A stretch of DNA of 24,098 nt. Origin: an uncultured bacterium. Its GTDB lineage: Bacteria; SAR324; NAC60-12. The DNA is taken from assembly GCA_964010765.1 (NCBI GenBank), contig CAXGMD010000052.1, positions 1 through 24,098 of the forward strand, written 5' to 3'. The notes under the pieces were generated by a model. It was given only the letters and a program-made list of their open reading frames with translations. It was not told the DNA's origin and did no database searches. Shown in pieces: positions 731 through 21,876 of this stretch; position 1 is the first letter of the stretch, and every line of letters begins with the position of its first letter. Both the position numbers and the translations under genes were made by a program.

Positions 731-857
731 AAAACGTTGGCCACGCTTCCTCCACAGTTCCAGATGCTACCTTAGCCTAAGACGACCAAGTGGCTGAAGA
801 CCGGATGAGAGAAGTCCTGCAAGGCTCTCATTTTCCTCACTTTTCTTCATCTGCACC

Positions 858-910
858 AACCCCTCACCCACCACTGACGTGGTCCCCCCTCTCCCAATGG
901 GCGAGGGTTT
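858..910. repeat. REP-like composite palindrome
   Basis: CCCTCACCC (861-869), hairpin ACCAC-TGAC-GTGGT (870-883), then CCCTCTCCC-AAT-GGGCGAGGG (887-907, one mismatch). Single copy in the window. Confidence 0.7.
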
Positions 911-957
911 TTGAGGCCTCATTGAATCCAAATTTACTTGCGAATCGGCGAAGGTTC

Positions 958-1118
958 TCAGAACTTTGGGTGGGAATTTTTCAGCTTCTCAAAGCGCTCT
1001 TGGCTCTCCAACTGGCAAATTTCCTGACGCAAAGACGCTTTTTTAGGCATAGGTCCGGTAGGTTGAACTCAAGGGTCAGTGAGAAAAACAGAGATTTCGG
1101 TTTACTCCAGAAAAAGTC
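958..1118 (-). pseudogene. Possible frameshifted transposase relic (ISNCY/IS5-like C-terminal part)
   Basis: Manual translation gives DFFWSKPKSLFFSLTLEFNLPD, then after a frameshift MPKKASLRQEICQLESQERFEKLKNSHPKF*. Resembles from memory the DKGFWS...PKKG...ES...F.KL...HS segment of such transposases; no search run. Confidence 0.4.
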
Positions 1119-1250
1119 AGCAAGCTTGAAAAATCCGACTACTCTGTCAAAGGATCATCATAAAAAATCTGTGCATCCCATAGCTCCCCAAAGGAGCCAG
1201 CATCCACACTTATCAAAAACTGACAACCAGAGAAATTCAGCGCGAGCACC

Positions 1251-1865
1251 TTGTATTTTGACAGAGGACCGCAGCACCTTTCAGAGTCAGATCCAGTTCT
1301 GCGAGTAGTGATCCAGCACCTGCAACCACAACCTCCGGAACCACGAGAGGCTAATTTTGAGTCGTTGATCCGCATCATTGCAGGACAGCAGCTCTCCAGC
1401 GCTGCGGCCTACACCATCTATCGCAGGTTGAAGCAAAAGTTTGAGGATTCCGTCATCACGCCTGCCATGATCCTTGGTTCCTCCAAGGAAGAACTGCTGA
1501 CCTGTGGACTCTCCAACGCCAAGGCACGGTACATCACGCTGATCGCCCAAGCATTTGAAGAGCAGCCCAACCGGATCGAAGAGTTGAGGGAAATGTCTGC
1601 TGAAGACGTGCTGGAGACACTACAAAGATTTAAGGGCATTGGCATCTGGAGCGCCAGCATCTTTGCGCTGTTTTACCTCCACCATCCGGATGTCTTTGTC
1701 TGGGGAGATGTCAGTCTGAAAAAAGCGATCCGACTGCTGTACGAGGAAGAAGAGCTGAGCGAACCGAAAATAGAGGCAGTCATTCAGCCGTGGCGGCCTT
1801 ATCGCAGTACAGCCTGCCTGGTCTTGTGGAAATGGCTGGATGAAGGAGCCATTCGGTTTTCGTAG
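1251..1865 (+). CDS. DNA-3-methyladenine glycosylase II family (AlkA-like, HhH-GPD)
   Basis: FESLIRIIAGQQLSSAAA, CGLSNAKARYI, HhH motif FKGIGIWSA, catalytic region DVFVWGD, C-terminal WRPYRSTA. TTG start; an in-frame stop lies at 1221-1223. Confidence 0.92.
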   Translation: MYFDRGPQHLSESDPVLRVVIQHLQPQPPEPREANFESLIRIIAGQQLSSAAAYTIYRRLKQKFEDSVITPAMILGSSKEELLTCGLSNAKARYITLIAQAFEEQPNRIEELREMSAEDVLETLQRFKGIGIWSASIFALFYLHHPDVFVWGDVSLKKAIRLLYEEEELSEPKIEAVIQPWRPYRSTACLVLWKWLDEGAIRFS

Positions 1866-1963
1866 AAGACGAGGTTCAGCAGTTGGGACCCAAAAGATTG
1901 GCAGGAATTGGAGAAGAGTCTCGTTGTTGGGTTGGTGAAAATAAAGAGGACGCTCGTTGTGAT

Positions 1964-2611
1964 TTAGAAGCTATAACCAACACTTAAAAATAGTACATTT
2001 TTTGGGGAATACTTATTTACGTCGCTCTCAAAATCCGCCTGACAAGCGCTGCTGCATTCCCAGTCATTGCCAAGTTCATAGTTTATCGATGGTTCACCAG
2101 TGATTAATCTGACAAAAGTGATTGATGCCGTCAGCCCACTGTTGAAAGTCCAGTTTTTACCAATTCCAAGATTATATCCATCTTCCGGATAATCTACCCT
2201 GTAAACGGCCTTTCTTTCACCATTCTGTTTGCTGTAGATCTCCTTCTTCGCTTCCCAATTCCTGTTGACCAATCCAGTTTGGAAAAACAAACCATCCACC
2301 GATACAAGGTAGTATCTGATATTCAGATAGGAGGTCTGACTGTCAAACCCTGATTTTTCAGTAGCCGAACCATCATTTGAATCTTCAGACATATCCCCAG
2401 AGAGAGATTGACCTTCAAGACTAAGCCACAGGTGTTTAATAAATTGGTAACTGAAACTAAGCCCAGGACCTAGGTTTGAAAGCACAATCGCTTGGCTTTG
2501 AAAATCCTTGTCGTTTAATGAGGAAGCATTTGAATTTAATGGAGTGACTGTGCAAAACAATAAAACCCCAATGCTAGTGCATAGAATCTTTATGAATTTT
2601 TGACTAATCAT
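1964..2611 (-). CDS. Predicted exported outer-membrane beta-barrel protein
   Basis: Signal peptide from ATG 2611 (MISQKFIKILCTSIGVLLFCTVTPLNSNA), alternating hydrophobic strands (GLSFSYQF, YLNIRYY, YNLGIGKNW) and a C-terminal aromatic beta-signal LSVGYSF. Confidence 0.7.
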   Translation of the reverse strand: MISQKFIKILCTSIGVLLFCTVTPLNSNASSLNDKDFQSQAIVLSNLGPGLSFSYQFIKHLWLSLEGQSLSGDMSEDSNDGSATEKSGFDSQTSYLNIRYYLVSVDGLFFQTGLVNRNWEAKKEIYSKQNGERKAVYRVDYPEDGYNLGIGKNWTFNSGLTASITFVRLITGEPSINYELGNDWECSSACQADFESDVNKYSPKNVLFLSVGYSF

Positions 2612-2815
2612 TTCTCTTTTTCTGTTTGTGTACACAACATCCGTATGGTTACTCCTACAGCACAAAATTTTCTGCTGCACAAATCAAAGAAGAATTTAAC
2701 ATCCATCAAGTTACAGTATCCGTTCTATCGATATCAACAGTGGAACTATCCTATTTCACACCACTCCAATGATGCGTGGAAATAATCCTACGTATTGCTG
2801 ACAAATAAGAATGCG

Positions 2816-3505
2816 CTAAACTAATTCAAAATCCTGCCAAGGCTTGGTCTGTGGAGGAGGACTGGTGAAGTGGAGAGTTTCACGAAGGGTAGGGTGCTGG
2901 AGCTGTAGTTGATGTGACCAAAGCGCAGGCCCCGATAGCTTGCGAGCCTGCCCGTACTTGTGATCGCCCAGAAGGGGATATCCACAATGTGCCAGTTGCA
3001 CCCGAATCTGGTGAGAGCGTCCCGTTTCCAATTGGATGCATAGTAGGCTCTTGTTTGCATGAACGGCAGTCCGCTCATAGTGGAGAATCGCTTGCTTGGC
3101 CGGGGGGACTCCGGATTCAACGACCCGAACGGTGTTGCTGTGATGATCCTTCTGTAGCCAATCGGTGAGGGTCCCCTCCGGGGGATCGACCACGCCAGCG
3201 ACCACAGCCAGGTAGGTTTTCTGTAAAGTCCGTTGACGAGCCTGATCTGCCAATCGGGACGCCGCCTTGGAGGTCTTGGCAAAGACCATCACTCCACCCA
3301 CAGGGCGATCCAGGCGCTGCACCAATCCCAAGAACACCTGGCCAGGTTTCTGGTCACGTTGCTTGATCCAGTTCCTGAGCAGGCTCAACAGGTCCGGGCT
3401 ACCACTGTGATCTGCCTGAGAGAGTAGGTTGGTCGGCTTTTCAACGACCAGCAGATGGTTGTCTTCAAACAACAGTTGGGGCGTAAAGCTCAAGGTGACC
3501 CGCAC
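2816..3505 (-). CDS. RluA-family pseudouridine synthase
   Basis: LFEDNHLLVVEKP, catalytic QRLDRPVGGVMVFAKT, KTYLAVV, LETGRSHQIRVQLA, PLLGDHKYG; no S4 domain. Confidence 0.95.
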   Translation of the reverse strand: MRVTLSFTPQLLFEDNHLLVVEKPTNLLSQADHSGSPDLLSLLRNWIKQRDQKPGQVFLGLVQRLDRPVGGVMVFAKTSKAASRLADQARQRTLQKTYLAVVAGVVDPPEGTLTDWLQKDHHSNTVRVVESGVPPAKQAILHYERTAVHANKSLLCIQLETGRSHQIRVQLAHCGYPLLGDHKYGQARKLSGPALWSHQLQLQHPTLRETLHFTSPPPQTKPWQDFELV

Positions 3506-3526
3506 TTTTTAGTGAGAACGAAAAAT

Positions 3527-4207
3527 ATGGAACTGCACACTGATTTTTCACAACGAGTGATCTTGCATACCGAACAAATGCCCTGGTCGCCTTCCCCAGC
3601 TGCTGGCGTGGAGCGACGCCAACTGGACCGCCAGGGAGAAGAAGTCGCACGAGCCACGAGCATTGTGCGTTATGCTCCCGGTAGTTACTTCGCAGCCCAC
3701 ACACACGGAGGCGGTGAAGAGATTTTTGTGCTGGAGGGTGTCTTCTCCGATGAGCACGGGCACTATCCACCCGGGAGCTACCTGCGCAATCCGCCCGGAA
3801 CCACTCACACTCCTTTTTCGGAGCCGGGCTGTGTCATCTTCGTCAAGCTCTGGCAGTTCAATCCCGGTGACGCACAAACCGTCTGTCAACACACCGAACA
3901 GGGTAGCTGGAGCCCCGGACGTCAGGAAGGCATTCAGGTTCAGCTTCTTCATGAATTTCAAGGTGTCCGAACCGTGCTGATGCGCCTGGAGCCTGACCTA
4001 CAAGTACAGCTTCACTCCCATCCGAGTGGAGAAGAGATTCTTGTGCTGGAAGGTGACTTTGCCGATGAGCACGGCAAATACTCCAAGGGGAGCTGGCTAC
4101 GCAGCCCTCCCGGTTCCTGCCACTCTCCAAAGATTGGTCCAAATGGAGCCCTGCTCTATTTGAAGTCTGGACACCTGGTGGCCCCGGTGCTGCCGTTGCC
4201 AAACTGA
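3527..4207 (+). CDS. ChrR-like tandem cupin protein
   Basis: EEVARATSIVRYAPGSYFAAHTHGGGEEIFVLEG and a second cupin HSHPSGEEILVLEG...WLRSPPGSCH; ATG 3527 (MELHTDF) avoids overlap with the divergent gene. Confidence 0.9.
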   Translation: MELHTDFSQRVILHTEQMPWSPSPAAGVERRQLDRQGEEVARATSIVRYAPGSYFAAHTHGGGEEIFVLEGVFSDEHGHYPPGSYLRNPPGTTHTPFSEPGCVIFVKLWQFNPGDAQTVCQHTEQGSWSPGRQEGIQVQLLHEFQGVRTVLMRLEPDLQVQLHSHPSGEEILVLEGDFADEHGKYSKGSWLRSPPGSCHSPKIGPNGALLYLKSGHLVAPVLPLPN

Positions 4208-4221
4208 TGGGCATTGTCTCC

Positions 4222-5088
4222 TCAGAACAAGCTCAGTTGTTCACCGGGCTGAGGAACTTCCCCAGCAAAATCGGGCAGCGTCGGTAACTCCGGAAGCTGC
4301 TCCTGCAGAAAGCCATGGAAATCTCGCGCAAGTTGAGGAGCCAATATGTCATCCGGGGTGTGCAGAAAAACAAAGGGAGTGAACCCTTGGCGCATCCAAT
4401 TGGCTACTCGCTGGGCCCAATCCCGTAAAACTGGATAATTGACCTCATTTTGGGGATCTCCAACAAAACGCAGCAGCGGTAGCTCATTCGTTGCTGTGAA
4501 GCGCACGGGCACCTTGGGCTTGCGGCGCTTTGCCTCGATGGTAGCGGAGTCATTTTGCTGAGAAGCCATCAGCTTGTGGGTGTCAAAGAGGACCCGAGCC
4601 ATCTGGCGTTGACGCAAAAACGCATCCAACTCTTGCTCTATTTTCTGCTCGTCGAAGTAAGCTAGGTTGCGTACCTCCACCGCGTAGCGAAAGTCTGAAG
4701 GCAATTGGAGCAGGAATTGTTGCAGTTGTGGCCAACGGTTGCGACCAAAGTCTGCAGAAAGTTGCAGTTGAATCGGGCCAATTCGTTCCTCCAGGGGAGC
4801 AATCCGCTCGAAGAATTCCCTTGTCAATTCGGTCGTGTTTTCCAATTTGCGGTCGTGACTGATGCTGCGGGGAAACTTGAAGCAGAAGCGGAAGTCGGGG
4901 GGAGTTGACTCTTTCCAACGCTCAACGACATCTGGGCGAGGCAACGCGTAGAAGGTGGTGTTTCCTTCCACCGTGCTGAAGACCCGAGCGTAGCCTGCTA
5001 GAAAATCTGTAGGTCGGGTTCGTGTTGGCAGCAGACTGCCCTTCCATTCAGGGCGTGACCACTCAGGGCATCCGAGAAAATAGTGCAT
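4222..5088 (-). CDS. DUF72 (YecE-like) protein
   Basis: LGCPEWSRPEW, YARVFSTVEGNTTFYALP, FRFCFKFPRSISH, YAVEVRN, FVFLHTPD. Confidence 0.92.
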   Translation of the reverse strand: MHYFLGCPEWSRPEWKGSLLPTRTRPTDFLAGYARVFSTVEGNTTFYALPRPDVVERWKESTPPDFRFCFKFPRSISHDRKLENTTELTREFFERIAPLEERIGPIQLQLSADFGRNRWPQLQQFLLQLPSDFRYAVEVRNLAYFDEQKIEQELDAFLRQRQMARVLFDTHKLMASQQNDSATIEAKRRKPKVPVRFTATNELPLLRFVGDPQNEVNYPVLRDWAQRVANWMRQGFTPFVFLHTPDDILAPQLARDFHGFLQEQLPELPTLPDFAGEVPQPGEQLSLF

Positions 5089-5330
5089 CCGGTGGCTTTT
5101 CCGAGAGAAATGCTAGATTTGAAGCTTGATACCAGGATGAATGGCAGAGCGATTGCGTATCTTTGCTGCATCTTAAAAGGCGACATATCAGGGATCAAGT
5201 AGGAAGTCGAATGCGTTCAAAACTACGGCACACAGCCACTTGCGACCGATTCTTTCCCTCGTTACACTTGTGATCTTGAGCCGCTGTTTGATCTGCGGTC
5301 AAATACTTATATGATTCTAGGAGATTCAGA

Positions 5331-5711
5331 ATGGCAGACACATTGACACCAGAGATGCGTGAAGGCATGCCGGAGCCAGAAGGGTATCGGGTCAATAGCA
5401 TACCCGATGAGAACGATATCGTCTTTGGCAAGGGTCCGATCACCGAAGAGACTGCGCGCAATATGATCCTTGACTACCCCGACAGCGTTCTCAAGTTTCT
5501 ACAGGGGAAAGACTTGGATGAACGACCTCTCTCTCCAGATATCAGTGGAATTCATGCGATCTGGCGAGAACGTGGTCTGCGGAAGGATATTTTGCAAAAA
5601 TATTTTTTGCATTTTATGGATTGGCCCGATGGGATTCCCTCGGCAACCATGCTGGACTTGCTGAGTGACGTGCGAGACAAGATTCGCAATCTTGGTAAGC
5701 CGAAGAAATAA
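5331..5711 (+). CDS. Hypothetical cytoplasmic protein (126 aa)
   Basis: AGGAG at 5319-5323 before ATG; fills the gap between DUF72 and hsp20; no recognised motif. Confidence 0.75.
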   Translation: MADTLTPEMREGMPEPEGYRVNSIPDENDIVFGKGPITEETARNMILDYPDSVLKFLQGKDLDERPLSPDISGIHAIWRERGLRKDILQKYFLHFMDWPDGIPSATMLDLLSDVRDKIRNLGKPKK

Positions 5712-5723
5712 GCTGTAAGCAGA

Positions 5724-5748
5724 GGAGGCCAGCCCTACGCTGACCCCC
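5724..5748 (-). terminator. Probable terminator hairpin between convergent hypothetical gene and hsp20
   Basis: Minus-strand RNA GGGGGUCAGC-GUAGG-GCUGGCCUCC forms 10 bp with two G-U pairs; the following UCUGCUU is a weak U tract. Confidence 0.55.
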
Positions 5749-5793
5749 TGAATGGGGCCAATGCTTCATTCATCAGCCCACCGTGGCACCAAC

Positions 5794-6225
5794 TCAGTTG
5801 ATCGGGATTTGGCGCATCTCGGCCTGCTGCTGCTTAGGCAGACGCAGGTGCAGCACTCCATCCTTCATCTCGGCATGACTACCTTCCATGGCCACTGCCT
5901 GTGGCAACTGAATCCGGCGCTGAAAATTACCGTAATTGCGCTCTACACGCAACACACCTTCTCGATTCTCTTCATGAGAACTCTTCTTCTCTCCCTGAAT
6001 CGTCAGCACTCGTCCATTCAAGGAAATCTTCACGTCTTCCTTGTTCAACCCCGGTAGCTCGACCTGAAGTTGATAGGTGGTTTCATCTTCCTGCAGATCC
6101 AACGCAGGTGAAAAACGTCGTGTGGCTGTTTCTCCAAAAACTTCTGGCCAAGCGGACTCACTAAAGAATTCTTCCATGAGGTTGCGGAACGGAACGGTGC
6201 TGTTGCGGATGGTGACGGGGTACAT
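5794..6225 (-). CDS. Hsp20/alpha-crystallin small heat-shock protein
   Basis: PALDLQEDETTYQLQVELPGLNKEDVKI, LTIQGEK, RVERNYGNFQRRIQLP, AEMKDGVLHLRLPK; AGGAG six nt before ATG 6225. Confidence 0.96.
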   Translation of the reverse strand: MYPVTIRNSTVPFRNLMEEFFSESAWPEVFGETATRRFSPALDLQEDETTYQLQVELPGLNKEDVKISLNGRVLTIQGEKKSSHEENREGVLRVERNYGNFQRRIQLPQAVAMEGSHAEMKDGVLHLRLPKQQQAEMRQIPIN

Positions 6226-6293
6226 GCTGCTCTCCTGAAAAGAGGAAGTATTTTGAGGAGCACCCAAATCATCTTGATGTGCTCCGTTATTTG

Positions 6294-6320
6294 TTAGCAC
6301 TCACTTTAATAGAGTGCTAA
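6294..6320. promoter_or_regulatory. CIRCE operator (HrcA site)
   Basis: Exact consensus TTAGCACTC-ACTTTAATA-GAGTGCTAA; the palindrome extends to 13-bp arms (6290-6324); lies upstream of hsp20. Confidence 0.97.
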
Positions 6321-6331
6321 CAAACTGTCAA
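6303..6331 (-). promoter_or_regulatory. Sigma70-type promoter of hsp20
   Basis: TTGACA (6331-6326), 17-nt spacer, TAAAGT (6308-6303); the -10 box lies inside the CIRCE spacer. Confidence 0.85.
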
Positions 6332-6372
6332 GAAAAAATTTTTACTAGGCGAGCAAACCGCTCAATGACTAG

Positions 6373-7080
6373 TCAATCGACGAGGCGATCGGGATCTTCC
6401 TTAGGTCGGTTGGGATTCTCTCGGAAGAGTTGACGGCGGGTAGTTGGGTTGAGGAAATCTTCCTCACGCAGACCTTGCTGGCGACTAATTTGGGAGACAA
6501 TGGCCTTGACGAAGGCGCGTTGTTCCAGTCGCTCTTCCATCTGCCGACGCAGCTTGAGGATATCGCGGACGCTGTATTCGCGGTCAGGGATTTCTTCTTC
6601 CTCATCAACAATTGACTGCGTATCTCCCTGCAGGACAAGGCGGTGATAGCTCTCAAGGAAAATCAGAAAATCAATGAGTAGCGGAGTCGGACGACCCTGG
6701 CTACTCTGAATCAGGTTGCGGCGCAGCGTCTGGGGTTGAGGGGCATTCTGATTCAGTTGCTGAAAAACACGACGAATCTTGCGTAGCAATTGTTGTTGGG
6801 ACGTCTGGGCATCCCATCGGGAACGTGTCGCAAAATCAAGAAACTGCTGCAGTCGCGGTCGTGGCGCCAACTGGGGCCACCAGAAAAGATTCAGACCAAA
6901 AAAGCGCTGCAGGACTTGTTCACAGCGTTCCAACTCTGCGAGCTGGCAGTCTTCGAAGAAGAAACCGTGCTGATAGAGCAATTGACAGAGTTGGAGCAGT
7001 TGAGAGGTTGCGGCAGGGAGCTGGCGATCCTGCTGCTGTTGGAAAATTGCACCTGGTTGGGCTGGTCGACGCAGCATCAT
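6373..7080 (-). CDS. Hypothetical helical, Gln-rich protein (about 235 aa)
   Basis: Longest ORF filling the gap between hsp20 and the TPR gene on the same strand; no recognised motif; start uncertain. Confidence 0.7.
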   Translation of the reverse strand: MMLRRPAQPGAIFQQQQDRQLPAATSQLLQLCQLLYQHGFFFEDCQLAELERCEQVLQRFFGLNLFWWPQLAPRPRLQQFLDFATRSRWDAQTSQQQLLRKIRRVFQQLNQNAPQPQTLRRNLIQSSQGRPTPLLIDFLIFLESYHRLVLQGDTQSIVDEEEEIPDREYSVRDILKLRRQMEERLEQRAFVKAIVSQISRQQGLREEDFLNPTTRRQLFRENPNRPKEDPDRLVD

Positions 7081-7158
7081 TGATTCTAGAAGGAGCGCAG
7101 ACGTTTAGGTCTGGGATAAATGAACAGTAGGAATGGAGCGTTGCCCTGAGGCCATTAT

Positions 7159-7842
7159 TCAATCCCAACCTGGTATGGAGGTCTTGGCTGGACCACTTGG
7201 TACTGGACGTCGGATCGAAGTGTTCATTTGGGGAGTTGGCTGTCCAGCCTGTGCTCCTGGATTAGTATTCAGTTGTTGCTGGAGTTGCTGTTTGACTTGC
7301 TGAATCATGCCAGGTGGAGGTGTTGCTCCAGCAGCTGCCATGGCTGCCTGTCCCCCAGCTGCAGAGATCGGTCGTTGAGGTGCAGATGGAGTTGGTGCCT
7401 CTGTCTTGGCAACTGGTTTTGGATCTTCAGGAGACTGCTGCTGGATCAGGATCTGGTAGCGATTGTAGTGACGGTTGGCTTTGTCGCTGTTGCGCATTCG
7501 GTAGTAGACCAGTGCCGTATTGTAATGAGCGTCTGGTTGATCAGGCTCCATCTCCAGTACATTCTCAAAAGAATCCAGAGCTTGTTCGTAGTCTCCTACT
7601 TGGAAATAGGCCAACCCTAGATTGTAAAAGAAGCTTGGTGTCTCATCATCCAGCACGATGGCCTGGCGGTAGTTCCAGATGGCTGTTGGATAGTCCCGCT
7701 TTTGGTAAGCAGTGTTGCCATCACGGAAATAATTCAGAGCCGAGCGCGGGGTCGGGGTTTCGAGAGAACTACAGCCACTGAGCAGCATCATCGGGACGAT
7801 GATCCAGCGGAACAAAAAACGTGGGAATTGGGTTGCGGGCAT
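7159..7842 (-). CDS. TPR-repeat lipoprotein with P/Q/A-rich tail
   Basis: Lipobox LSGC after a hydrophobic stretch (start ATG 7842); about three TPRs (YFRDGNTAYQKRDYPTAI, FYNLGLAYFQVGDYEQAL, HYNTALVYYRM); low-complexity C-terminus. Confidence 0.85.
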   Translation of the reverse strand: MPATQFPRFLFRWIIVPMMLLSGCSSLETPTPRSALNYFRDGNTAYQKRDYPTAIWNYRQAIVLDDETPSFFYNLGLAYFQVGDYEQALDSFENVLEMEPDQPDAHYNTALVYYRMRNSDKANRHYNRYQILIQQQSPEDPKPVAKTEAPTPSAPQRPISAAGGQAAMAAAGATPPPGMIQQVKQQLQQQLNTNPGAQAGQPTPQMNTSIRRPVPSGPAKTSIPGWD

Positions 7843-7951
7843 GACTTGCGTATCCCTTGCATGGTCCGGGAAATTCACTGGCATTTTCGCCGATAGGTTC
7901 ATTACGATAGGTTCACTTGCTCATGCACAATCCATACTTGAAGGAGGCACG

Positions 7952-8359
7952 ATGAAGTGTGGAAATTGGTTTGTCGCCGCATTATTACTGCTGAGTTGCT
8001 TCGTTGCTCTTCCGTCCCTACAGGCTCAAAACATGACAGAGGAAGAGGCTGAGGCAGCCCGCATCGAACAACGTTTCCTCACCGAGTTGGAGACCCTGCT
8101 CAAGGCAGCACGTGATGCACAGTTCCCCGAAGAGGAAGTGCGCTCCATCACGGTACAGCGTGAAGGGAAGACGATCAACGCCTTTGAATATCTGGAACAA
8201 GCGAAGCGTCAACAGGCTCGCAAGGAAAGCCGACGTGTGGTGCTGAGGGATCGCTACCTGACAGTTCAGGACATCATGGGTGAACTGAAATCACAGGAGT
8301 CTGGCAAGTTGGACTCACTGCGAGAAGAGCTCGTCTTCATTGGTGCTGAAGAGAAATGA
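7952..8359 (+). CDS. Exported hypothetical protein
   Basis: AAGGAGG before ATG 7952; signal peptide MKCGNWFVAALLLLSCFVALPSLQA; ATGA overlap with the next gene. Confidence 0.8.
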   Translation: MKCGNWFVAALLLLSCFVALPSLQAQNMTEEEAEAARIEQRFLTELETLLKAARDAQFPEEEVRSITVQREGKTINAFEYLEQAKRQQARKESRRVVLRDRYLTVQDIMGELKSQESGKLDSLREELVFIGAEEK

Positions 8360-9075
8360 TCCCGCTGCTCTGCGTAGCTGGTGCCAGAGGAGTGGGCAAG
8401 ACTTCTGTGGCCGTGGCCCTAGTCTCCCTGCTGCAGCAACACCTTGGAAGAGTGATCGCTTGGAAACCATTGGATGTCAATGGTATTGGGTATCAGATTC
8501 AGGACACCGATAGCGATGGGGAACGCCTGCACCGAGCCACTAACATGTCGGAGCACATCAACCTGCTGAATCCCTACTTGCTCAATGAAGACTTGCCTCC
8601 ACTATTAGCAGCACAACGGGACGGTATAAAAGTCGACGAGAAAGTACTGAGTCAGCGTTTAGAGTTGTTACGAAGACGCTCTGATGCAGTGTTGATGGAG
8701 AGCCTTGCTGAATTGTTAAGCCTTTGGACCACCAAGCATAGTGGACTGGAATTGCTGCAACAATGGCAGGCCAGAATCCTCTGGGTTAGTGGAATCGGGC
8801 GTGAGAGCCTGGAGCAGACGCTACAAGCGGTCACCCTACTTCAGCAAGCTGGGATCTCCTGTCAGTTGCTTCTCAACAACACAACCAACGAATTAAACGC
8901 TGATCTGCTCCAGTACCAATGGATGATGCTTGAAGAACGACTTGACCTGCGCGTGCTGGGCCTGCTCCCCTATAGGATCGAAGAAAATCGTCGCAATGCT
9001 AAATGGTTGTCGGACAACCTGGAGACGACTTTTCTCGATCAGTTGCTGCCTCCACCAGTCAGCCCTACTGTCTGA
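8356..9075 (+). CDS. Divergent dethiobiotin synthase (BioD)-like P-loop protein
   Basis: GARGVGKT P-loop, WKP, DSDGERL, NPYLL...PPLLAAQRDG, LLLNN and VLGLLPY in BioD order; EGAGG and LGxINH are not conserved. Confidence 0.75.
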   Translation: MIPLLCVAGARGVGKTSVAVALVSLLQQHLGRVIAWKPLDVNGIGYQIQDTDSDGERLHRATNMSEHINLLNPYLLNEDLPPLLAAQRDGIKVDEKVLSQRLELLRRRSDAVLMESLAELLSLWTTKHSGLELLQQWQARILWVSGIGRESLEQTLQAVTLLQQAGISCQLLLNNTTNELNADLLQYQWMMLEERLDLRVLGLLPYRIEENRRNAKWLSDNLETTFLDQLLPPPVSPTV

Positions 9076-9143
9076 ACACCTCACTTCAGATTCTATGAAA
9101 TTTCACGGCCGGACACCGCCGGCTTGCTCTTGGCAGGACCCCA

Positions 9144-9566
9144 ATGGACGTATTCAAGCGCTATCTGATCATTTTTGTCACCACCAGTACCTTCCTCTAC
9201 TTTTTTGTCATCTGGTATGAGAGTCAGAATCCAGGAGTAGCGGTTCCCCATAATTTGAGCGAGACTGGGGAAGAATCGATTGCAATCAACCTACAGCCCG
9301 AAAATGCTTACGAAAAGTGTGTGCAATTGCAGGCTCGCCAATTTCTGGACTATACTTTTGAAGCCTCAGAGCCACTGGTATTCAATATACATTACCACGT
9401 TGGCAAAGAAGACTTCTACCCGGAGCAACAAACCATTGCCACACTGAAAAGCTCATTTGAAGCCAAGGAGTCCCGGATCTACTGCCTGATGTGGGGTAAC
9501 TCCAGTGACCAGCAGGTTCGCCTGCGCTACGAATTTCGCGCCCGGCCACTAACAGCCTCCAACTGA
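9144..9566 (+). CDS. Membrane-anchored beta-rich hypothetical protein
   Basis: N-terminal TM helix YLIIFVTTSTFLYFFVIWY; periplasmic domain with a Cys pair (YEKC, YCLMWGN) and FNIHYH; CAGGA upstream of ATG. Confidence 0.75.
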   Translation: MDVFKRYLIIFVTTSTFLYFFVIWYESQNPGVAVPHNLSETGEESIAINLQPENAYEKCVQLQARQFLDYTFEASEPLVFNIHYHVGKEDFYPEQQTIATLKSSFEAKESRIYCLMWGNSSDQQVRLRYEFRARPLTASN

Positions 9567-11207: not shown

Positions 11208-12549
11208 ACGTGGTGAAGTCGCAATTGTCGGCAGTGGACTAGCTGGATCCGAAGCTGCCTGGCAACTGGCCCAACTCGGTCAGCGGGTAGACCTTTATGA
11301 AATGCGACCACAACGCCCGACTCCAGCCCACAAGACAAGCGACTGTGCCGAACTTGTCTGTAGCAACTCCTTCAAGAGCCGCTCGCTGGAGAATGCGCAC
11401 GGACTACTCAAAGCAGAACTGAATCAGTTCGGCTCCCTCATCCTGCAGACCGCAGAACGCTTTGCTGTGCCAGCTGGGCAGGCCTTGGCGATTGACCGTC
11501 AACCTTTCTCTGCCTCGATCACCCAGCAGCTGTCAAATCACCCAAATATCAAACTGCTACGAGAGGAAGTTGAAGATCTTGGCAAGCTGTTGGATCGTTA
11601 TGCTGCGGTCCTTGTAGCTACCGGCCCGCTGACCTCTGATGCTCTGAGTGAATCACTGCAGCAGTTGATCGGGATCGGGCATCTCTCTTTCTATGACGCA
11701 ATTGCTCCAGTAGTGACAACTGAATCCATCAACTCTCAAGTGGCTTTTCGGGCATCCCGCTATGACAAGGGAGAGGCTGATTATCTCAACTGTCCCTTCT
11801 CCCAGCAGCAGTACGAGGATTTTGTGGCAGCCATCCTGGCGGCGGACAAGGTGCCAATGCACCAGTTTGAGGATGTACGACCCTTCGAAGGTTGCCTGCC
11901 TATCGAGGTAATGGCGGAGCGAGGGCTCGACACTCTGCGCTTTGGCCCAATGAAGCCAGTGGGGCTACCCCATCCAGAAACTGGAGAACTGTTTCACGCC
12001 GTTGTTCAATTACGCCAAGAGAATGCACTAGGAACCCTCTACAATCTGGTTGGCTTCCAAACAAAAATGACTTGGACCGCACAACAACAAATTTTTCGAA
12101 CGATTCCAGGGTTGGAAGAAGCTGAATTTGTCCGCCTGGGTTCCATTCATCGCAACACTTTCCTGAACAGTCCCAAATTGCTGACCAGCCGGCTGCAGTT
12201 GCAGCAAGAGCCCAGGCTGTTCTTTGCTGGTCAGTTGACTGGAGTGGAGGGTTACACAGAATCAACTTCGATGGGATTGGCTGCCGCCTATTTCCTACAC
12301 CACGAACTCCAGGGAGACTCACTCCTAGAGTTGCCTGGCACTACGATGATGGGAGGCCTGATTCGTTACCTGACCACTACGGATCCCAAGCACTTCCAAC
12401 CAATGAACGCCAATTTTGGTCTACTGGAACCCCCTCAGCAACGCATTCCCAAGCCCCAGCGTAAAGCCTGGCTGGCCGAACGAGCCATGAGAGAGCTGCA
12501 GCAGTGGCGGGAGTCCTGCGAACTTAGAGCCTCAGTGACTGCTGTATGA
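11200..12549 (+). CDS. trmFO: Folate/FAD-dependent tRNA m5U54 methyltransferase
   Basis: GSGLAGSEAAWQ, AELVCSNSF, FEGCLPIEVMA, FGPMKPVGL, YNLVGFQT, FAGQLTGVEGY, FQPMNANFG. Confidence 0.97.
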   Translation: MPERGEVAIVGSGLAGSEAAWQLAQLGQRVDLYEMRPQRPTPAHKTSDCAELVCSNSFKSRSLENAHGLLKAELNQFGSLILQTAERFAVPAGQALAIDRQPFSASITQQLSNHPNIKLLREEVEDLGKLLDRYAAVLVATGPLTSDALSESLQQLIGIGHLSFYDAIAPVVTTESINSQVAFRASRYDKGEADYLNCPFSQQQYEDFVAAILAADKVPMHQFEDVRPFEGCLPIEVMAERGLDTLRFGPMKPVGLPHPETGELFHAVVQLRQENALGTLYNLVGFQTKMTWTAQQQIFRTIPGLEEAEFVRLGSIHRNTFLNSPKLLTSRLQLQQEPRLFFAGQLTGVEGYTESTSMGLAAAYFLHHELQGDSLLELPGTTMMGGLIRYLTTTDPKHFQPMNANFGLLEPPQQRIPKPQRKAWLAERAMRELQQWRESCELRASVTAV

Positions 12550-13352
12550 CTTGGTTCGAAGCTTCGATTTTAGGGCTGGTGCAAGGACTGACAGAATTTT
12601 TACCGATCAGCAGTACTGCCCACTTACGGATTGTCCCAGAATTGCTGGGCTGGGAAGATCCCGGTGCGGCTTTCTCCGCTGTGATCCAGCTGGGAACCCT
12701 GCTAGCGGTCCTGCTGTACTTCCGCAAAGACGTACTGGAGTTGATCACTGCGGCCTTGCGGAGTCTCTGGAATCGAAACCTGATGGAGACCCAAAGCTCA
12801 CGGCTTGCGTGGGCGATTGCTGTTGGGAATCTACCAATCATTGTGCTGGGATTGGGATTCAAGGATTTTATCGAGACAGATGCCCGAAGCCTCTGGATCA
12901 TTGGAGGAGCGCTGATTCTCCTCGGCTTGGGACTCTATGCTGCGGAACGCTTCGCCTCTGGCAGTCGTGATGCCAGCCAGCTGAGCTTTCGGCAGATTCA
13001 ATGGATCGGGCTTTGTCAGGCCTTGGCCTTGATTCCAGGTTGTTCCCGCTCTGGCTCAACGATCATGGGGGGTCTGCTTGTGGGTATGGATCGAGCAGAG
13101 GCGGCTCGGTTTTCTTTTCTGCTGGGCTTACCTGCCATCCTGGGAAGTGGACTTTTTCAACTCAAGGCGCTTGCAGAAACAGGTTTGGGAGAATCTGGGC
13201 TCCTCAATATCGGTCTCGGCGTATTCTTCGCATTTCTGAGTGGCTATCTTTCTATTGAATTCCTGCTGCGCTTTCTGCGGCACTATGGCACTCTGCTGTT
13301 TGTGATCTATCGTATTTTGCTGGGAGCAGTGGTCCTGTTCCTGGCTGTCTGA
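12546..13352 (+). CDS. uppP: Undecaprenyl-diphosphate phosphatase (BacA)
   Basis: LGLVQGLTEFLPISSTAH, IQLGT, ALIPGCSRSGSTI, AARFSFLL, FVIYRI. Confidence 0.97.
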   Translation: MTWFEASILGLVQGLTEFLPISSTAHLRIVPELLGWEDPGAAFSAVIQLGTLLAVLLYFRKDVLELITAALRSLWNRNLMETQSSRLAWAIAVGNLPIIVLGLGFKDFIETDARSLWIIGGALILLGLGLYAAERFASGSRDASQLSFRQIQWIGLCQALALIPGCSRSGSTIMGGLLVGMDRAEAARFSFLLGLPAILGSGLFQLKALAETGLGESGLLNIGLGVFFAFLSGYLSIEFLLRFLRHYGTLLFVIYRILLGAVVLFLAV

Positions 13353-18333: not shown

Positions 18334-18498
18334 ATGAGGTTTCGAATGCAATGGCTCGCACCCCAGTCTCGCTTTTTGCTCAAAAACTTGTTCAAACGCA
18401 ACTATGATCACCTGCGACCCAGGGCACAGAAGACAATCAATTGGACCGTTCTGGGCGTGGATGTCGCGGCCATCTGGTTGCTCCTGTCAATGCTATAA
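18334..18498 (+). CDS. Small basic protein with C-terminal TM helix
   Basis: Fills the selB to lpoA-like gap; ends INWTVLGVDVAAIWLLLSML; start may be 18307, 18334 or 18346. Confidence 0.55.
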   Translation: MRFRMQWLAPQSRFLLKNLFKRNYDHLRPRAQKTINWTVLGVDVAAIWLLLSML

Positions 18499-20767
18499 GC
18501 TCCTGCTGCTTTTTCTGCTTTGGTTCGTTGGCGCTGGCTCTCTTGCAGCACAAAGTCTGCTGAGTCAGCCGCAGGAACTGGAGCAAGGTCTGCAACAGCT
18601 TTTTCCTCCGATCTCTGCCCCTGCTGAGTCAGTTTCTGCTGTTCAAACCGAACAGTCCCCATCTGGAGTAGTGTTTCCCTACCGCTACAGGGGAAATATC
18701 CCGGAACTGGATGCTTTGCTTCCAGCAGATCCAGAATTGGCTGCGGAGGAATTGATTCGCCAACAAGCCTTGTTGCCGGAAGAAGAGAAAGAATACTACC
18801 GCTTACGCATCGGGGCAGCTCAAACAGATCGTTCAAACATAGGCAGCTTCGCAAAAGCTTTTCTCTCCCACTATCCTCGTAGTCGCTACCGTGATCAGGT
18901 TTTTCTGATCTGGTTGGAGCAAAGTCCAGTCTGGACGCCGACCTTGGAAGCCGCAGCATCTATTTTCGTGCAAGATGCTGATTCTCAGCAACTACGCTAC
19001 TACTTATCACTACGTGGCCGAACAGCTGAAAATCAGGGTAATCTAGCCGAGGCCTTGCGCTATCGCCTAGAGGAAGCACGCTTACTGGATAATGAGCAGC
19101 AAAAAGAATTCAGTAAAACCTTGGAGAACCTGTTTGAAAAAATCTCCAATTCCCGTGTGCTTGAGCAATTCAGTAATGAGTTTGCCGACGTCCCCTCTAT
19201 TCAGCAGGCGCTCCCCCAACTACGCTTGGACAGGCTTGTGAAGGAGAGGAATTATGCAGAGGGACTATTGCTCTGTGAGCAGCTACTGCAAGAAGCCAAC
19301 CTGAAGGGAGATCGTACAGAGTTCCTGCGCCTAGAGAACTTACAGGAGTTCCTGCGACGTCGTGCTCAACTCAAACCCTATCGAGTTGGTGTGCTGCTGC
19401 CGTTGACGACGACCATTCCTACCGCAGCACGCCTGACACAGCAGACGATTGAAGGATTGCGGCTAGCTTTACAAGAAGCTCCTCCCCTCCCAAAGGACAA
19501 CTACACTGTAGAGCCCATAGAGCCTTTGGTTGATAACCTCACGAAATCAACTCCAGCTGACAATACCAGCGTGGCCACGGAATCAGAGATGGTGGTTTCC
19601 ACTTCGACAGACAATATCACTCCTGAAAGTGATTTCGCAGATCCAGTGACATTTTCTCGGGTAGATAACCTGACTGCTCCTCAGCCAGACAATCAAACTG
19701 AGATCGCCAAGGCGGAACCCCTACAACTTCCCCTACCACCTCGGTGGGAATTTGTGTTCCGTGACACGAAACTGGATCCCGATACCACTCGGCAGGGCTT
19801 CCGTGAATTGGTAGAAGATGAGCACGTGATGGCGGTCATTGGCCCACTGGCTCGTAGAACCTCTGAAGCAGCAGCGGCGGAAGCGGAAGCATTCAAAGTA
19901 CCGATGATTTCACTCTCAGTGACCACCAGTATCGCTGATTTGGGAGACTATGTTTTCCGCAACAACATCAGCTGGGAACAAGAAGTAGAGGCGCTGCTGG
20001 ATTACGCTACCGAGTACCTACAGGCACGCCGCTTTGTTGTACTCTATCCAGACAGTCGGGAGGGACGTGAGAAGCTAAGAGTCTTCTGGGAACAAGCCAA
20101 AGCGATTGGTGCCCAAATTCAGAATATTCAGCGCTACGAAAACAGCCAGAACAGCTTCGTGGATGAGTTTGAGTCTTTCACCGGCATCCGTCGCTATCGA
20201 ACTGATGAAGAAGATGCCCTGATTGAAAAACAAAAAGACCGGGGAATACCGGAGCAGAACTTTGACGCGATCTTCCTGATTGCTGGTGACCAGACCCAGG
20301 ACCTGGAGATTATCTTCCCCTATCTGGAAGTCTACGGTCTCGAAGATTCGCTGATTTTGGGAGACAGCGGCTGGAACAATCCTCTGCTACTCTTTGCCCC
20401 CAAACGGGAAACCATCCGTCACGTTGTCTTCACTGATAGTTTCTTTCCTCGCAGTGAAGCCCAAGAGGTACAGCACTTTGTCGCAGAGCACGAGCGGTTC
20501 TTCTATCGCTACCAAGGATATATTGGCCCAACTGCTTACACAGCCTATGCGTACGATACTGCGAAGCTGTTGTTGCAACTGCTGACTCAACCTGCGAACC
20601 AGGATCCGGATGCCCTAAGGGAGGCTTTGCTGAACCAACCACCCACTCAAGGTGTCGCCGGGCGCTTTGAATTCCAGCCCAATGGCGAGGTCTGGCACCA
20701 AATGAACTTCTGGACGATGGGTCGAGACCGTTTCGTCCCAATTTCTCTGCCTACTGCGGAAGACTGA
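18461..20767 (+). CDS. LpoA/LppC-like penicillin-binding-protein activator (helical N-domain plus periplasmic-binding-protein type 1 domain)
   Basis: Signal peptide KLLLLFLLWFVGAGSLAA; FLSHYPRSRY helical repeat; RVGVLLPLT, VFRDT, AVIGPL, YVFRN, FDAIFL, AYAYD, GVAGRFEF. Start uncertain (18404 or 18461). Confidence 0.8.
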   Translation: MSRPSGCSCQCYKLLLLFLLWFVGAGSLAAQSLLSQPQELEQGLQQLFPPISAPAESVSAVQTEQSPSGVVFPYRYRGNIPELDALLPADPELAAEELIRQQALLPEEEKEYYRLRIGAAQTDRSNIGSFAKAFLSHYPRSRYRDQVFLIWLEQSPVWTPTLEAAASIFVQDADSQQLRYYLSLRGRTAENQGNLAEALRYRLEEARLLDNEQQKEFSKTLENLFEKISNSRVLEQFSNEFADVPSIQQALPQLRLDRLVKERNYAEGLLLCEQLLQEANLKGDRTEFLRLENLQEFLRRRAQLKPYRVGVLLPLTTTIPTAARLTQQTIEGLRLALQEAPPLPKDNYTVEPIEPLVDNLTKSTPADNTSVATESEMVVSTSTDNITPESDFADPVTFSRVDNLTAPQPDNQTEIAKAEPLQLPLPPRWEFVFRDTKLDPDTTRQGFRELVEDEHVMAVIGPLARRTSEAAAAEAEAFKVPMISLSVTTSIADLGDYVFRNNISWEQEVEALLDYATEYLQARRFVVLYPDSREGREKLRVFWEQAKAIGAQIQNIQRYENSQNSFVDEFESFTGIRRYRTDEEDALIEKQKDRGIPEQNFDAIFLIAGDQTQDLEIIFPYLEVYGLEDSLILGDSGWNNPLLLFAPKRETIRHVVFTDSFFPRSEAQEVQHFVAEHERFFYRYQGYIGPTAYTAYAYDTAKLLLQLLTQPANQDPDALREALLNQPPTQGVAGRFEFQPNGEVWHQMNFWTMGRDRFVPISLPTAED

Positions 20768-21876
20768 TGCAAGAATTGACTGTAAATCTGCCTGGTCGAA
20801 GTTACCAAATCACCATTGGAACCAACCACTGGTCTGCATCTTTGACCAAAATACTCCGAGAGCGGAATGCTCGTCAGGTGGTTGTGGTGACCAATGATGC
20901 TTTGCAACGGCTGTATCCAGACCTACTCGCTACGGAACTTCAACAAAATGGCTTTGAGACTGCCACCTGTGTAATCCCTGATGGGGAGCAACACAAAACC
21001 CTCGCTGACCTGACAAGAATTTATGACTTCCTGCTGGAGCGCTCTGCCAACCGAAAGACCTGGTTGATCGCCTTTGGAGGTGGGGTGATTGGAGACATGA
21101 CTGGTTTTGCCGCCGGAACTTTCATGCGTGGTATTCCCTTCGTACAGATTCCGACTACCCTGCTTGCCAATGTTGACAGCAGTGTTGGAGGTAAAACTGC
21201 CGTCAATCATCCGCTAGGCAAAAACATGGTTGGCGTCTTCAAGCAACCAGAGTATGTCTGTATTGATCTAGAATTTCTCAAGACGTTGCCGATTCGAGAG
21301 CTACGGGCGGGTTACTTTGAACTGGCCAAACATGGACTGATCCACGACCATTCGCTCTTCGAATTCCTACAACAGCAAACACTGGAACCACTGGATTTTG
21401 AATTTCTTGAAGAAGCCGTCACCCGATCCTGTGACGTCAAGCGCCGGGTTGTCGAAGAGGATGAGCACGAAACCGGACTACGAGCTACGCTCAACTTTGG
21501 CCACACTCTGGGACACCTGATCGAAACCCACGCCGGCTACGGACAGTGGCTGCACGGGGAGGCTGTTGGTACTGGAATGCTCTTTGCGACCTATGTGTCC
21601 TGGCAGGAAGGCCATTTGACCGAAGAAAATTATCAACGCATCCGTGACTTTCTGTTGCCCCTGCTTCCCGAGGTCACCCTACCACAGCTGGATGCCATGG
21701 CGTTCAGAGCCTTGTTGCTTCACGACAAGAAAGCCGAGAACCAGGCTGTCAATTTCATCCTGTTACGCAGTTTGGGGGAATGTTTCATTCAGCGCCAAAT
21801 GTCTGTTGAAACGCTTTGGAAGCACTTCGGCCACTTCCTGGAAACCTTTCCTCGGGCCTGCCGCCTTGCAGCTTGA
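20767..21876 (+). CDS. aroB: 3-dehydroquinate synthase
   Basis: IPDGEQHKT, AFGGGVIGDMTGF, IPTTLLANVDSSVGGKTAVN, LNFGHTLGH, LHGEAV, HDKK. Confidence 0.98.
   Translation: MQELTVNLPGRSYQITIGTNHWSASLTKILRERNARQVVVVTNDALQRLYPDLLATELQQNGFETATCVIPDGEQHKTLADLTRIYDFLLERSANRKTWLIAFGGGVIGDMTGFAAGTFMRGIPFVQIPTTLLANVDSSVGGKTAVNHPLGKNMVGVFKQPEYVCIDLEFLKTLPIRELRAGYFELAKHGLIHDHSLFEFLQQQTLEPLDFEFLEEAVTRSCDVKRRVVEEDEHETGLRATLNFGHTLGHLIETHAGYGQWLHGEAVGTGMLFATYVSWQEGHLTEENYQRIRDFLLPLLPEVTLPQLDAMAFRALLLHDKKAENQAVNFILLRSLGECFIQRQMSVETLWKHFGHFLETFPRACRLAA

Follow-up and report, generated by a model that had tools for sequence, protein, structure and literature searches.

A conserved array of D-N-x-S/T motifs in an exported SAR324 protein: a candidate N-glycosylation signal of one oligosaccharyltransferase-bearing clade

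Introduction

Detailed knowledge of bacterial N-glycosylation comes almost entirely from Campylobacter-type systems, in which the acceptor site is D/E-X-N-X-S/T, and from a few relaxed Desulfovibrio enzymes. In the oligosaccharyltransferase (OST) PglB of Campylobacter lari, the Asp at position -2 of the acceptor site has been proposed to be paired with R331, and the available sections of the same source describe Desulfovibrio PglB homologs that are relaxed at -2, some of them without an equivalent of R331 (S358 in DdPglB and Y381 in DvPglB), together with a library screen of DgPglB, an enzyme described as relaxed at -2, -1, and +1 and not as one that prefers Asp at -1 (Ollis et al. 2015, PMC4894442). 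The definitions of the STT3, PglB, and AglB motifs used here for comparison follow the accessible part of a second source, in which the exclusion of Pro is given as a hallmark of OST sequons (PMC8342417). The present analysis concerns a 24,098-nucleotide stretch of DNA (contig CAXGMD010000052.1, hereafter the window) from an uncultured bacterium of the SAR324 phylum and, within it, an open reading frame (ORF) of 787 amino acids whose exported product carries an array of six D-N-x-S/T motifs.

An initial annotation of the window had read this array as a set of candidate N-glycosylation sites with Asp at -1, and the genome from which the window derives (G000) is a metagenome-assembled genome (MAG) of 3.86 Mb in 266 contigs, 92.4% complete. 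As set out below, the motif marks surface proteins of just that branch of SAR324 which bears a PglB-like OST, and for this reason D-N-x-S/T is probably a new, lineage-specific N-glycosylation signal. No N-glycosylation in SAR324 was found in the literature searched.

The Motif Array and Its Conservation

Translation of the ORF at 18404-20767(+) reproduced the six motifs of the initial annotation together with their coordinates and spacings, the first residues being 365, 377, 386, 403, 421, and 429 and the spacings 12, 9, 17, 18, and 8 codons. The 68 codons of the array contain only six Asn, each of them inside a D-N-x-S/T and hence with Asp at -1 as first described, and the N-x-S/T rule (x not Pro) is satisfied at all six sites. 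The residues at -2 are K, V, A, T, V, and P, so that D/E occurs there at 0/6 sites. The motifs, with their state in the orthologs of related genomes (including the congeners G004 and G008), are as follows.

19496..19507, + strand: DNYT, residues 365-368; DNLT or DNHT in congeners, DTYT in G008, NNHT in G004
19532..19543, + strand: DNLT, residues 377-380; invariant in 7/7 close orthologs
19559..19570, + strand: DNTS, residues 386-389; DNAS in G004
19610..19621, + strand: DNIT, residues 403-406; invariant in 7/7 close orthologs
19664..19675, + strand: DNLT, residues 421-424; DNQT in 5/7 close orthologs
19688..19699, + strand: DNQT, residues 429-432; invariant in 7/7 close orthologs

The array is not a DNA tandem repeat, in agreement with the first description: the Asp and Asn codons are mixed (GAC/GAT and AAC/AAT), Tandem Repeats Finder returned nothing at a score of at least 30, and a repeat search gave no more than two pairs, both short and imperfect (22 nt, 73%, and 15 nt, 87%), the second of which consists of the two V-D-N-L-T copies. 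The array is real and far above chance expectation. When the 83-residue linker was shuffled 200,000 times, the maximum was three motifs, reached 15 times, against a real count of six, and 50 within-protein shuffles of the 3,511 gene calls of the genome gave no protein with four motifs in 70 aa, while among the real proteins three reach 4, 5, and 6. Within the 787-aa protein, sequons occur at 6/7 Asp-Asn pairs vs. 1/22 other Asn (6/1/1/21, Fisher p 9.9e-5).

Orthologs of the protein were found in 40/41 related genomes, and seven close congeners (87-97% identity) retain five or six of the motifs. Among these seven orthologs, 2/18 columns are variable at the D, N, and S/T positions of the motifs, 3/6 at the x positions, 30/65 in the spacers of the insert, and 108/720 in the remainder of the protein; the difference between the motif positions and the x plus spacer columns (2/18 vs. 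33/71) has a Fisher p of 0.0065. The insert loop evolves about three times faster than the remainder of the protein and the motif positions are held nonetheless, which shows purifying selection on D, N, and S/T within a fast-evolving loop, i.e., the protein-level selection that had been suspected from the window. In a distant congener (45% identity), the insert cannot be aligned and contains DNRS, ENAT, DNAS, and DNTT. In 15 ortholog sequences from the genera designated g1, g2, g4, g11, and g12, 52/60 DN lie in DNx[ST], and after removal of seven near-identical g1 sequences the count is 12/15, at differing positions, the motifs being in the insert in genomes G001, G009, G019, and G024 and in the N-terminal region in g4. 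In 15 sequences from outside this clade (other genera and family f2), the count is 0/9. The motifs therefore persist, or reappear elsewhere, while the spacers drift.

Other Array-Rich Proteins of the Genome

Genome-wide counts were made on the authors' own gene calls with a home-made signal-peptide and lipobox classifier, both of which are heuristic. In the source genome, x-S/T follows 17.0% of DN vs. 11.4% of all Asn. In cytoplasmic proteins, the frequency of a sequon given DN is 0.110 vs. a baseline of 0.107, i.e., there is no coupling, and in the exported classes it is 0.249 for signal-peptide proteins and 0.518 for lipoproteins, an excess carried by few proteins. The enrichment of exported proteins that the initial annotation had led one to look for was thus found as a coupling restricted to exported proteins, in a handful of them, and not as a general property of the class. 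An acidic residue at -2 is not used, its frequency among sequons being 0.10-0.13 in all protein classes and equal to the baseline. Per-protein Fisher tests singled out four proteins for coupling of Asp at -1 with the sequon.

C69:796-9192: 2,799 aa, Fisher 53/12/37/136, p 1.7e-17
C22:34812-39611: 1,600 aa, p 3.8e-8
Window protein: 787 aa, p 9.9e-5 (as above)
C98:4457-6310: 618 aa, p 1e-3

The domains of the array-rich proteins are unrelated to one another and include Big_5, LamG (Laminin_G_3), and Kelch; Calx-beta; and RCC1. The exported C69 protein (796-9192, - strand), with Big_5, Laminin_G_3, and Kelch domains, has Asp at -1 in 53/90 sequons; its homologs are 40-78% identical between congeners vs. 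about 95% for housekeeping orthologs and are usually cut by contig ends, for which reason it looks like a hypervariable surface protein. In genome G020, a repeat protein of 3,833 aa (G020:C30, L062:8098-19596(-)) with no Pfam domain above cut-off contains 334 Asn, of which 249 are in N-x-S/T and 219 of these have Asp at -1; its 225 DN are nearly all in sequons, about 75% of its Asn are in sequons, and Pro is absent from +1 (a second count, on a version one residue longer, gave 335, 250, and 220). Similarly, in four proteins of G011, 24/25, 17/17, 20/25, and 13/14 DN are in sequons (74/81), and in their neighbours none. Across eight array-rich proteins, Pro stands at +1 in 3/515 N-x-[ST] vs. 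15.9 expected, the pooled counts being non-independent owing to repeats.

No glycosylation enzyme was found among the 18 ORFs that flank the four loci of array-rich genes in the source genome. In four small lipoprotein-like proteins of this genome (C16:24182, C98:9084, C105:7816, and C86:8824), a Gly/Ser tether comes after the lipobox Cys, with DNTT, DNSS, DNAT, or DNST immediately behind it.

Distribution of Arrays and of the Oligosaccharyltransferase Across SAR324

DNA was scanned for three DNx[ST] spaced 5-15 codons apart, with non-overlapping matches counted. The source genome has four matches (two in C69, one in C22, and one in the window), and the equivalent EN and ND patterns have zero. 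The scan of 88 genomes of the SAR324 phylum gave the following numbers of matches per genome.

g2: 64-83
g1: 0-22
g11: 0-23
g12: 8-20
g4: 13 in one genome, 0 in two
Remaining seven genera of the same family: 0-1, except for one 12-Mb genome with 5, whose reversed control gave 8
43 genomes of other families: 0-1

With the pattern reversed as a control, these 43 genomes gave 0-4 per strand, mostly 0-1, and repeated, above-control arrays are accordingly confined to g1, g2, g4, g11, and g12. These five genera form one clade with support of 98/99 in a tree of a single protein, the 787-aa protein. The OST profile was positive in 3/9 genomes of g1, 3/3 of g2, 3/3 of g4, 2/3 of g12, and 3/18 of g11, i.e., in 14/36 genomes of the five array genera, vs. 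1/52 elsewhere, the latter being a distant homolog in one of the 43 genomes from other families; for the remaining seven genera of the same family the count was 0/9. In 5 of the 14 OST-positive genomes, the gene is cut by a contig end or split.

Some candidates and comparisons were set aside. The 'STT3' matches of g11 were rejected as PMT_2-type GT-C proteins without WWDxG, the distribution of which is unlike that of the arrays. A comparison within g4 (G011 with an intact OST and 13 matches, G058 with a split and G021 with a cut OST and 0 matches each) was dropped because contig ends truncate the orthologs of the G011 array proteins in both G058 and G021, and the same comparison for the C69 homolog of G008 was dropped because only its first 190 residues are present, at a contig start.

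The PF02516 matches in relatives of the source genome are ORFs of 742-878 aa, and those of g1, g2, and g4 have WWDYG or WWDFG. The OST P0002 (740 aa, L032:1120-3339) scores 34.2 bits against PF02516 (cut-off 24.5) and 25.7 bits against PF21436 (STT3-PglB_core; cut-off 23), and the OST at L085:10001-12220 scores 27.7 and 29.2 bits, respectively. A nine-sequence OST profile matched C. lari PglB (5OGL) with E 1.1e-46 over residues 100-711 of 5OGL, and the corresponding positions are as follows.

SAR324 OST D76: C. lari PglB D56
D212/D214: D154/D156
E344 of T-I-S-E: E319
WWDYG 507-511: WWDYG 457-461
DGGS: DGGK
K600 (MxxK): I572 (MxxI, MI motif)
Q356: R331

D76, D212-T-D214, T-I-S-E344, and W507-W-D-Y-G are invariant or conserved in the nine OST sequences, and the R331 column is never Arg in five SAR324 OSTs, which have Gln or Gly. 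Judged from these residues, the SAR324 OST looks catalytically intact but unable to read -2 in the Campylobacter fashion, and the lack of acidic residues at -2 in the array and their baseline frequency genome-wide agree with an OST that lacks Arg at the R331 position. Basic residues specific to SAR324 in comparison with four outgroup OSTs (K235, K260, R400, R539, and K620) were considered as readers of -1; they were not placeable relative to the peptide site and none was named. Complex prediction of the OST with the insert returned 'no answer' in two runs (score 0.00), which is neither for nor against binding.

Lys occupies the I572 position in all nine PglB-like OSTs, which come from SAR324, Deferribacterales, and Aquificales MAGs, and this resembles the DK-type pocket of eukaryotes and some archaea. 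A Deferribacterales MAG has two PglB-like genes in tandem (L056:973-2970 and 2974-4614), with WWDYG and WWDFG, the second of which runs off the contig. A frameshift or an assembly error has broken the OST of G058 (L078:635-3080, G058:C22) into two reading frames, of 321 and 629 aa, that overlap.

The Oligosaccharyltransferase Locus

In one congener, the OST gene lies between cysD/cysNC and DUF29-rmlC-rmlA-PBP1A. In the source genome, the whole of this region is missing, including cysD and cysNC, and only a 2.1-kb contig with rmlA and PBP1A (C241) is present; an OST at the locus of the G001 type was considered and rejected, as the aldehyde dehydrogenase gene there adjoins the PriA N-terminus without an intervening OST, so that the two genomes do not have the OST position of G001 in common. 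In four sequencing runs that contain the window at 100% of the sampled words, short contigs of up to about 1 kb over the OST gene were also present, their identity to the congener being about 87-95%. In addition, seven metagenome contigs carry a full-length OST (91-93% identity to that of the congener), and the DNA downstream of it matches contigs of the source genome: C241 over its whole length in 7/7 (96.9-98.5%), starting about 2.1 kb from the OST, C254 over its whole length in 6/7 (95.7-98.9%), and the end of C107 in 6/7 (96.5-99.5%). The order on the best of these contigs is UDP-sugar dehydrogenase, acetyltransferase, cysD, cysNC, OST, DUF29, rmlC, rmlA, PBP1A, valS, and dapB. These contigs prove no more than the existence of conspecific genomes that bear the OST; the source strain is itself judged likely to carry the gene.

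The OST is located on a segment of about 6.7 kb that one congener has and another lacks, rmlC and cysNC being the flanks in both (L045:8092-14770 vs. L051:1532-1826), and this segment is a strain-variable island beside sulfate-activation and dTDP-rhamnose genes.

The Carrier Protein and Its Neighbours

The 787-aa protein is composed of the following parts.

18404..20767, + strand: whole ORF (P0001), exported protein in which a TPR-like helical N-domain precedes a C-domain of the type I periplasmic-binding-protein kind
18404..18550, + strand: N-terminal signal peptide, residues 1 or 20 to 49 (sequence, heuristic classifier, and ortholog starts)
18701..19369, + strand: all-helical TPR-like repeat domain, residues about 100-322 (AlphaFold2 model, mean pLDDT 80.4)
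19382..19474, + strand: first strand and first helix of the periplasmic-binding fold, residues 327-357, upstream of the insert (AlphaFold2)
19499..19729, + strand: disordered insert, residues 366-442, pLDDT <50 (AlphaFold2), its length and sequence differing between genera
19748..20743, + strand: rest of the type I periplasmic-binding fold, residues 449-780 (Pfam PF13458, E 4.3e-25; Foldseek LivK 3td9, E 1.3e-22)

The initial annotation had placed the array in an insert inside the periplasmic-binding domain, and this was borne out both by Pfam and by modelling. Peripla_BP_6 covers residues 449-770 and enters at profile position 44, and in an AlphaFold2 model made for residues 318-787 from an alignment of 27 sequences (mean predicted local distance difference test score [pLDDT] 79.7), a strand at 327-332 and a helix at 339-357 are followed by an insert of 77 residues (366-442) without secondary structure and with pLDDT <50, and then by a strand at 449-454. 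In the model, the array accordingly occupies an insert that is predicted to be disordered and separates helix 1 from strand 2 of the fold; the six motif Asn are the only Asn of this insert. The signal peptide, which was assigned by sequence and the home-made heuristic classifier and not by SignalP, ends in ...GAGSLAA|QS without a lipobox Cys, and the mature chain begins with Q-S/A-x-x in all 28 aligned orthologs.

The protein had also been called an LpoA-like regulator of cell-wall synthesis, and this part of the initial annotation is not established. LpoA, the activator of PBP1A in Haemophilus influenzae and Escherichia coli (PDB 5VBG), has the same TPR-like helical N-domain and type I periplasmic-binding-fold C-domain, and residues 50-329 of the window protein indeed fold as TPR-like helical repeats in the AlphaFold2 model. 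Unlike LpoA, the window protein has no lipobox, no match to Pfam LppC (PF04348; only Peripla_BP_6 and ANF_receptor match at E<=0.01), and none to NCBIfam (0 families); its C-domain is nearest to solved structures of LivK/LivJ-type binding proteins, and it carries the sequon-bearing insert, which is peculiar to genus g1. Foldseek matches of the N-domain are weak, the best being a TPR protein at E 0.037, with H. influenzae LpoA (5vbg) at rank 21 (E 0.12, TMq 0.36). The name LpoA-like therefore denotes a likeness of architecture only, and the layout of a TPR-like domain with a periplasmic-binding fold is not specific.

The neighbouring genes selB, aroB, hslO, an MFS transporter gene, and ilvD have no link to glycosylation, and none of the nine ORFs scanned between 11200 and 24062 is a glycosylation gene, as the initial annotation had stated for the window. 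The 787-aa ORF and aroB share one base, at which the stop codon of the former meets the ATG of the latter (20767; window 20764-20770), for which reason the two genes are probably co-transcribed, and selB lies 100 nt upstream. The window also contains a gene for the undecaprenyl-diphosphatase BacA (12546-13352, Pfam E 8.4e-82), which is not specific evidence because the lipid carrier that it recycles serves all periplasmic glycan transfers.

Interpretation and Rival Explanations

The favoured explanation is that D-N-x-S/T serves as the acceptor sequon of the clade's OST and that the six sites of the insert are N-glycosylated, a reading for which the case from sequence comparison is judged evenly balanced. 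The Sec-exported protein would present the six Asn as acceptor sites of Asn-linked glycosylation in a loop that is disordered and exposed to solvent, and a single-subunit PglB-like OST facing the periplasm would transfer a lipid-linked glycan to each of them. The WWDYG motif and the MxxK pocket of the enzyme would read the Ser/Thr at +2, and the OST, or selection on its substrates, would favour Asp at -1, unlike the -2 of Campylobacter. The glycans may shield or stiffen the fast-evolving loop.

Several observations weigh against this explanation. The initial annotation had proposed an OST of the lineage and had named the absence of any STT3/PglB as grounds for giving up the idea; five different searches, with PF02516 and the OST profile among them, found none in the 92.4%-complete assembly, although a PglB-type OST with WWDYG does occur in the clade, and an intact OST is found in the same five genera as the arrays, so that the idea of a lineage OST stands for the clade and not for this assembly. 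The OST was likewise not found in 5/8 congeners, one of which is 99% complete and has all six motifs, and G008 joins rmlA/rmlC and cysNC without the OST segment, its ortholog keeping five of the six motifs; a true OST-less allele therefore exists in genus g1. Since it was by their OST that the metagenome contigs were selected, they say nothing on the frequency of OST-less variants. Because the five genera form one clade, the co-occurrence of OST and motif is a single event and is not replicated, and within the clade the detection of the OST tracks motif counts only loosely. In five non-SAR324 genomes that carry related OSTs (22-34% identity), the pattern matched 0-1 times. When seven proteins with at least five motifs were removed, a post-hoc exclusion, the signal-peptide class fell to 0.115 vs. 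0.117 (11/39 DN of the lipoproteins remained in sequons), and lipoprotein tethers were rejected as a motif-enriched class, with 3 DNx[ST] among 16 sequons and 129 Asn over 83 lipobox candidates. Ser is about as common as Thr at +2 in most of the eight array-rich proteins, and no precedent for a sequon with Asp at -1 was found in the literature searched.

An intrinsic structural or physicochemical motif without any sugar, such as Asx/ST turns or the binding of Ca2+ or water in surface proteins of the clade, would suit the even use of Ser and Thr and the fact that the link to the OST comes from one clade, and some occurrences do lie at turn positions of known repeats, e.g., 'LLDNKSVQCWG' in RCC1, where other proteins have D-G, and the Calx-beta-like 'DNDT'. 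This is nevertheless improbable, though to be kept in mind, given that the window array is in a region predicted to be without structure, cytoplasmic proteins of the same genome have no coupling of DN with the sequon, SAR324 genomes of up to 12 Mb outside the clade have no arrays and the orthologs there have none of their nine DN in the motif, Pro is excluded at +1, and the carrier domains are unrelated. The motif may alternatively have arisen as an OST sequon in a lineage from which this strain, like G008, has lost the OST island, the sites now being unmodified and persisting for lack of time. This explanation, which is considered unlikely, draws on the assembly without an OST, on the OST-less allele known in the genus, and on the ortholog of G008 (94% protein identity), which still has 5/6 motifs and whose one loss, DTYT, falls in an OST-less genome; it is opposed by the finding that the OST region, with the core genes cysD and cysNC, is simply unassembled here, by OST-bearing contigs that adjoin DNA up to 99.5% identical to the source genome, and by the conservation of the motif positions, which in seven congeners clearly exceeds that of the residues around them.

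A different modification or partner, e.g., O-glycosylation of the +2 Ser/Thr by another membrane glycosyltransferase, or a processing or sorting signal, would account for the many array-bearing genomes in which no OST was found. The O-glycosylation motif of Bacteroidetes also starts with Asp, and PMT_2-type GT-C proteins of 732-758 aa occur in the family, with a 564-aa relative in the source genome. The PMT_2 protein is patchy in its distribution, however, being absent from g12 and most of g2 and a pseudogene in G054; the source genome has no cytoplasmic N-glycosyltransferase (HMW1C/NGT, GT41; PF13844, 0 matches at E<=0.01), the four array-rich loci have no glycosyltransferase beside them, and a motif that is exactly N-x-S/T with Pro excluded fits an OST, all of which makes a modification of another kind quite unlikely. 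(Genes of the PMT_2-type GT-C class are found in some SAR324 genera at L060:882-3077(-) and L061:2543-4816(+), and that of G054, C3:678032-680207, is broken by several stop codons.) An origin by chance, or as a by-product of a D/N/S/T-rich low-complexity linker, could be suggested by the richness of the insert in T, S, P, E, and D. It is refuted by the shuffles of the same composition, none of which exceeded three motifs, and by the conservation of the ortholog columns, with Asp before all six Asn and the motif kept while the spacers change, and its probability is negligible.

Under the favoured explanation of D-N-x-S/T as an OST sequon, and somewhat short of an even balance, a pelagic SAR324 clade may tentatively be considered to run N-glycosylation with a D-N-x-S/T code, in which the acidic determinant is at -1 and the OST lacks the -2 Arg and has a Lys like that of eukaryotes and archaea, and to hyperglycosylate giant surface proteins (up to about 220 sites) as well as periplasmic loops. 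SAR324 is reported to be abundant in the dark ocean. If the reading is true, a major uncultured lineage of the ocean coats its surface proteins with N-glycans, which bears on phage, grazers, and marine organic matter, and the position of the OST and its substrates in assembly-breaking regions would explain why the system went unnoticed; the case also shows that MAGs systematically lose glycosylation islands as well as the substrates of these. It would also widen the known acceptor codes, offer glycoengineers an orthogonal tag, and show how an acidic determinant can shift along the peptide.

Comparison With Known N-Glycosylation Systems

The PglB of C. jejuni and C. lari (PDB 3RCE, 5OGL, and 6GXC) is, like the SAR324 enzyme, a single-subunit bacterial OST of the STT3 family with conserved DXD, TIXE, WWDYG, and DGG(K/S), and in both systems the sites follow N-x-S/T, have an acidic residue nearby, and lie in flexible segments of exported proteins. 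In SAR324, this acidic residue occupies -1 and not -2, P0002 has Gln instead of R331 and Lys instead of I572 (MxxK), and the SAR324 gene is not in a pgl operon but between cysNC and rmlC/rmlA, beside a class A penicillin-binding protein gene. Archaeal AglB shares with the present case a very high density of sequons in giant surface proteins, as in the G020 protein with 75% of its Asn in sequons, and differs in that the SAR324 host is bacterial and its enzyme is closest to PglB. To our knowledge, the archaeal sequon has no -1 Asp rule. The Desulfovibrio enzymes, which belong to the former Deltaproteobacteria, resemble the system proposed here in needing no D/E at -2, and natural D-N-x-S/T arrays, which are not reported for them in the sections of that source available, are present in the SAR324 clade (PMC4894442). 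By the motif definitions in the accessible part of PMC8342417, Lys at the DK/MI pocket position is a further feature that the SAR324 OST, otherwise PglB-like, has in common with archaeal AglB.

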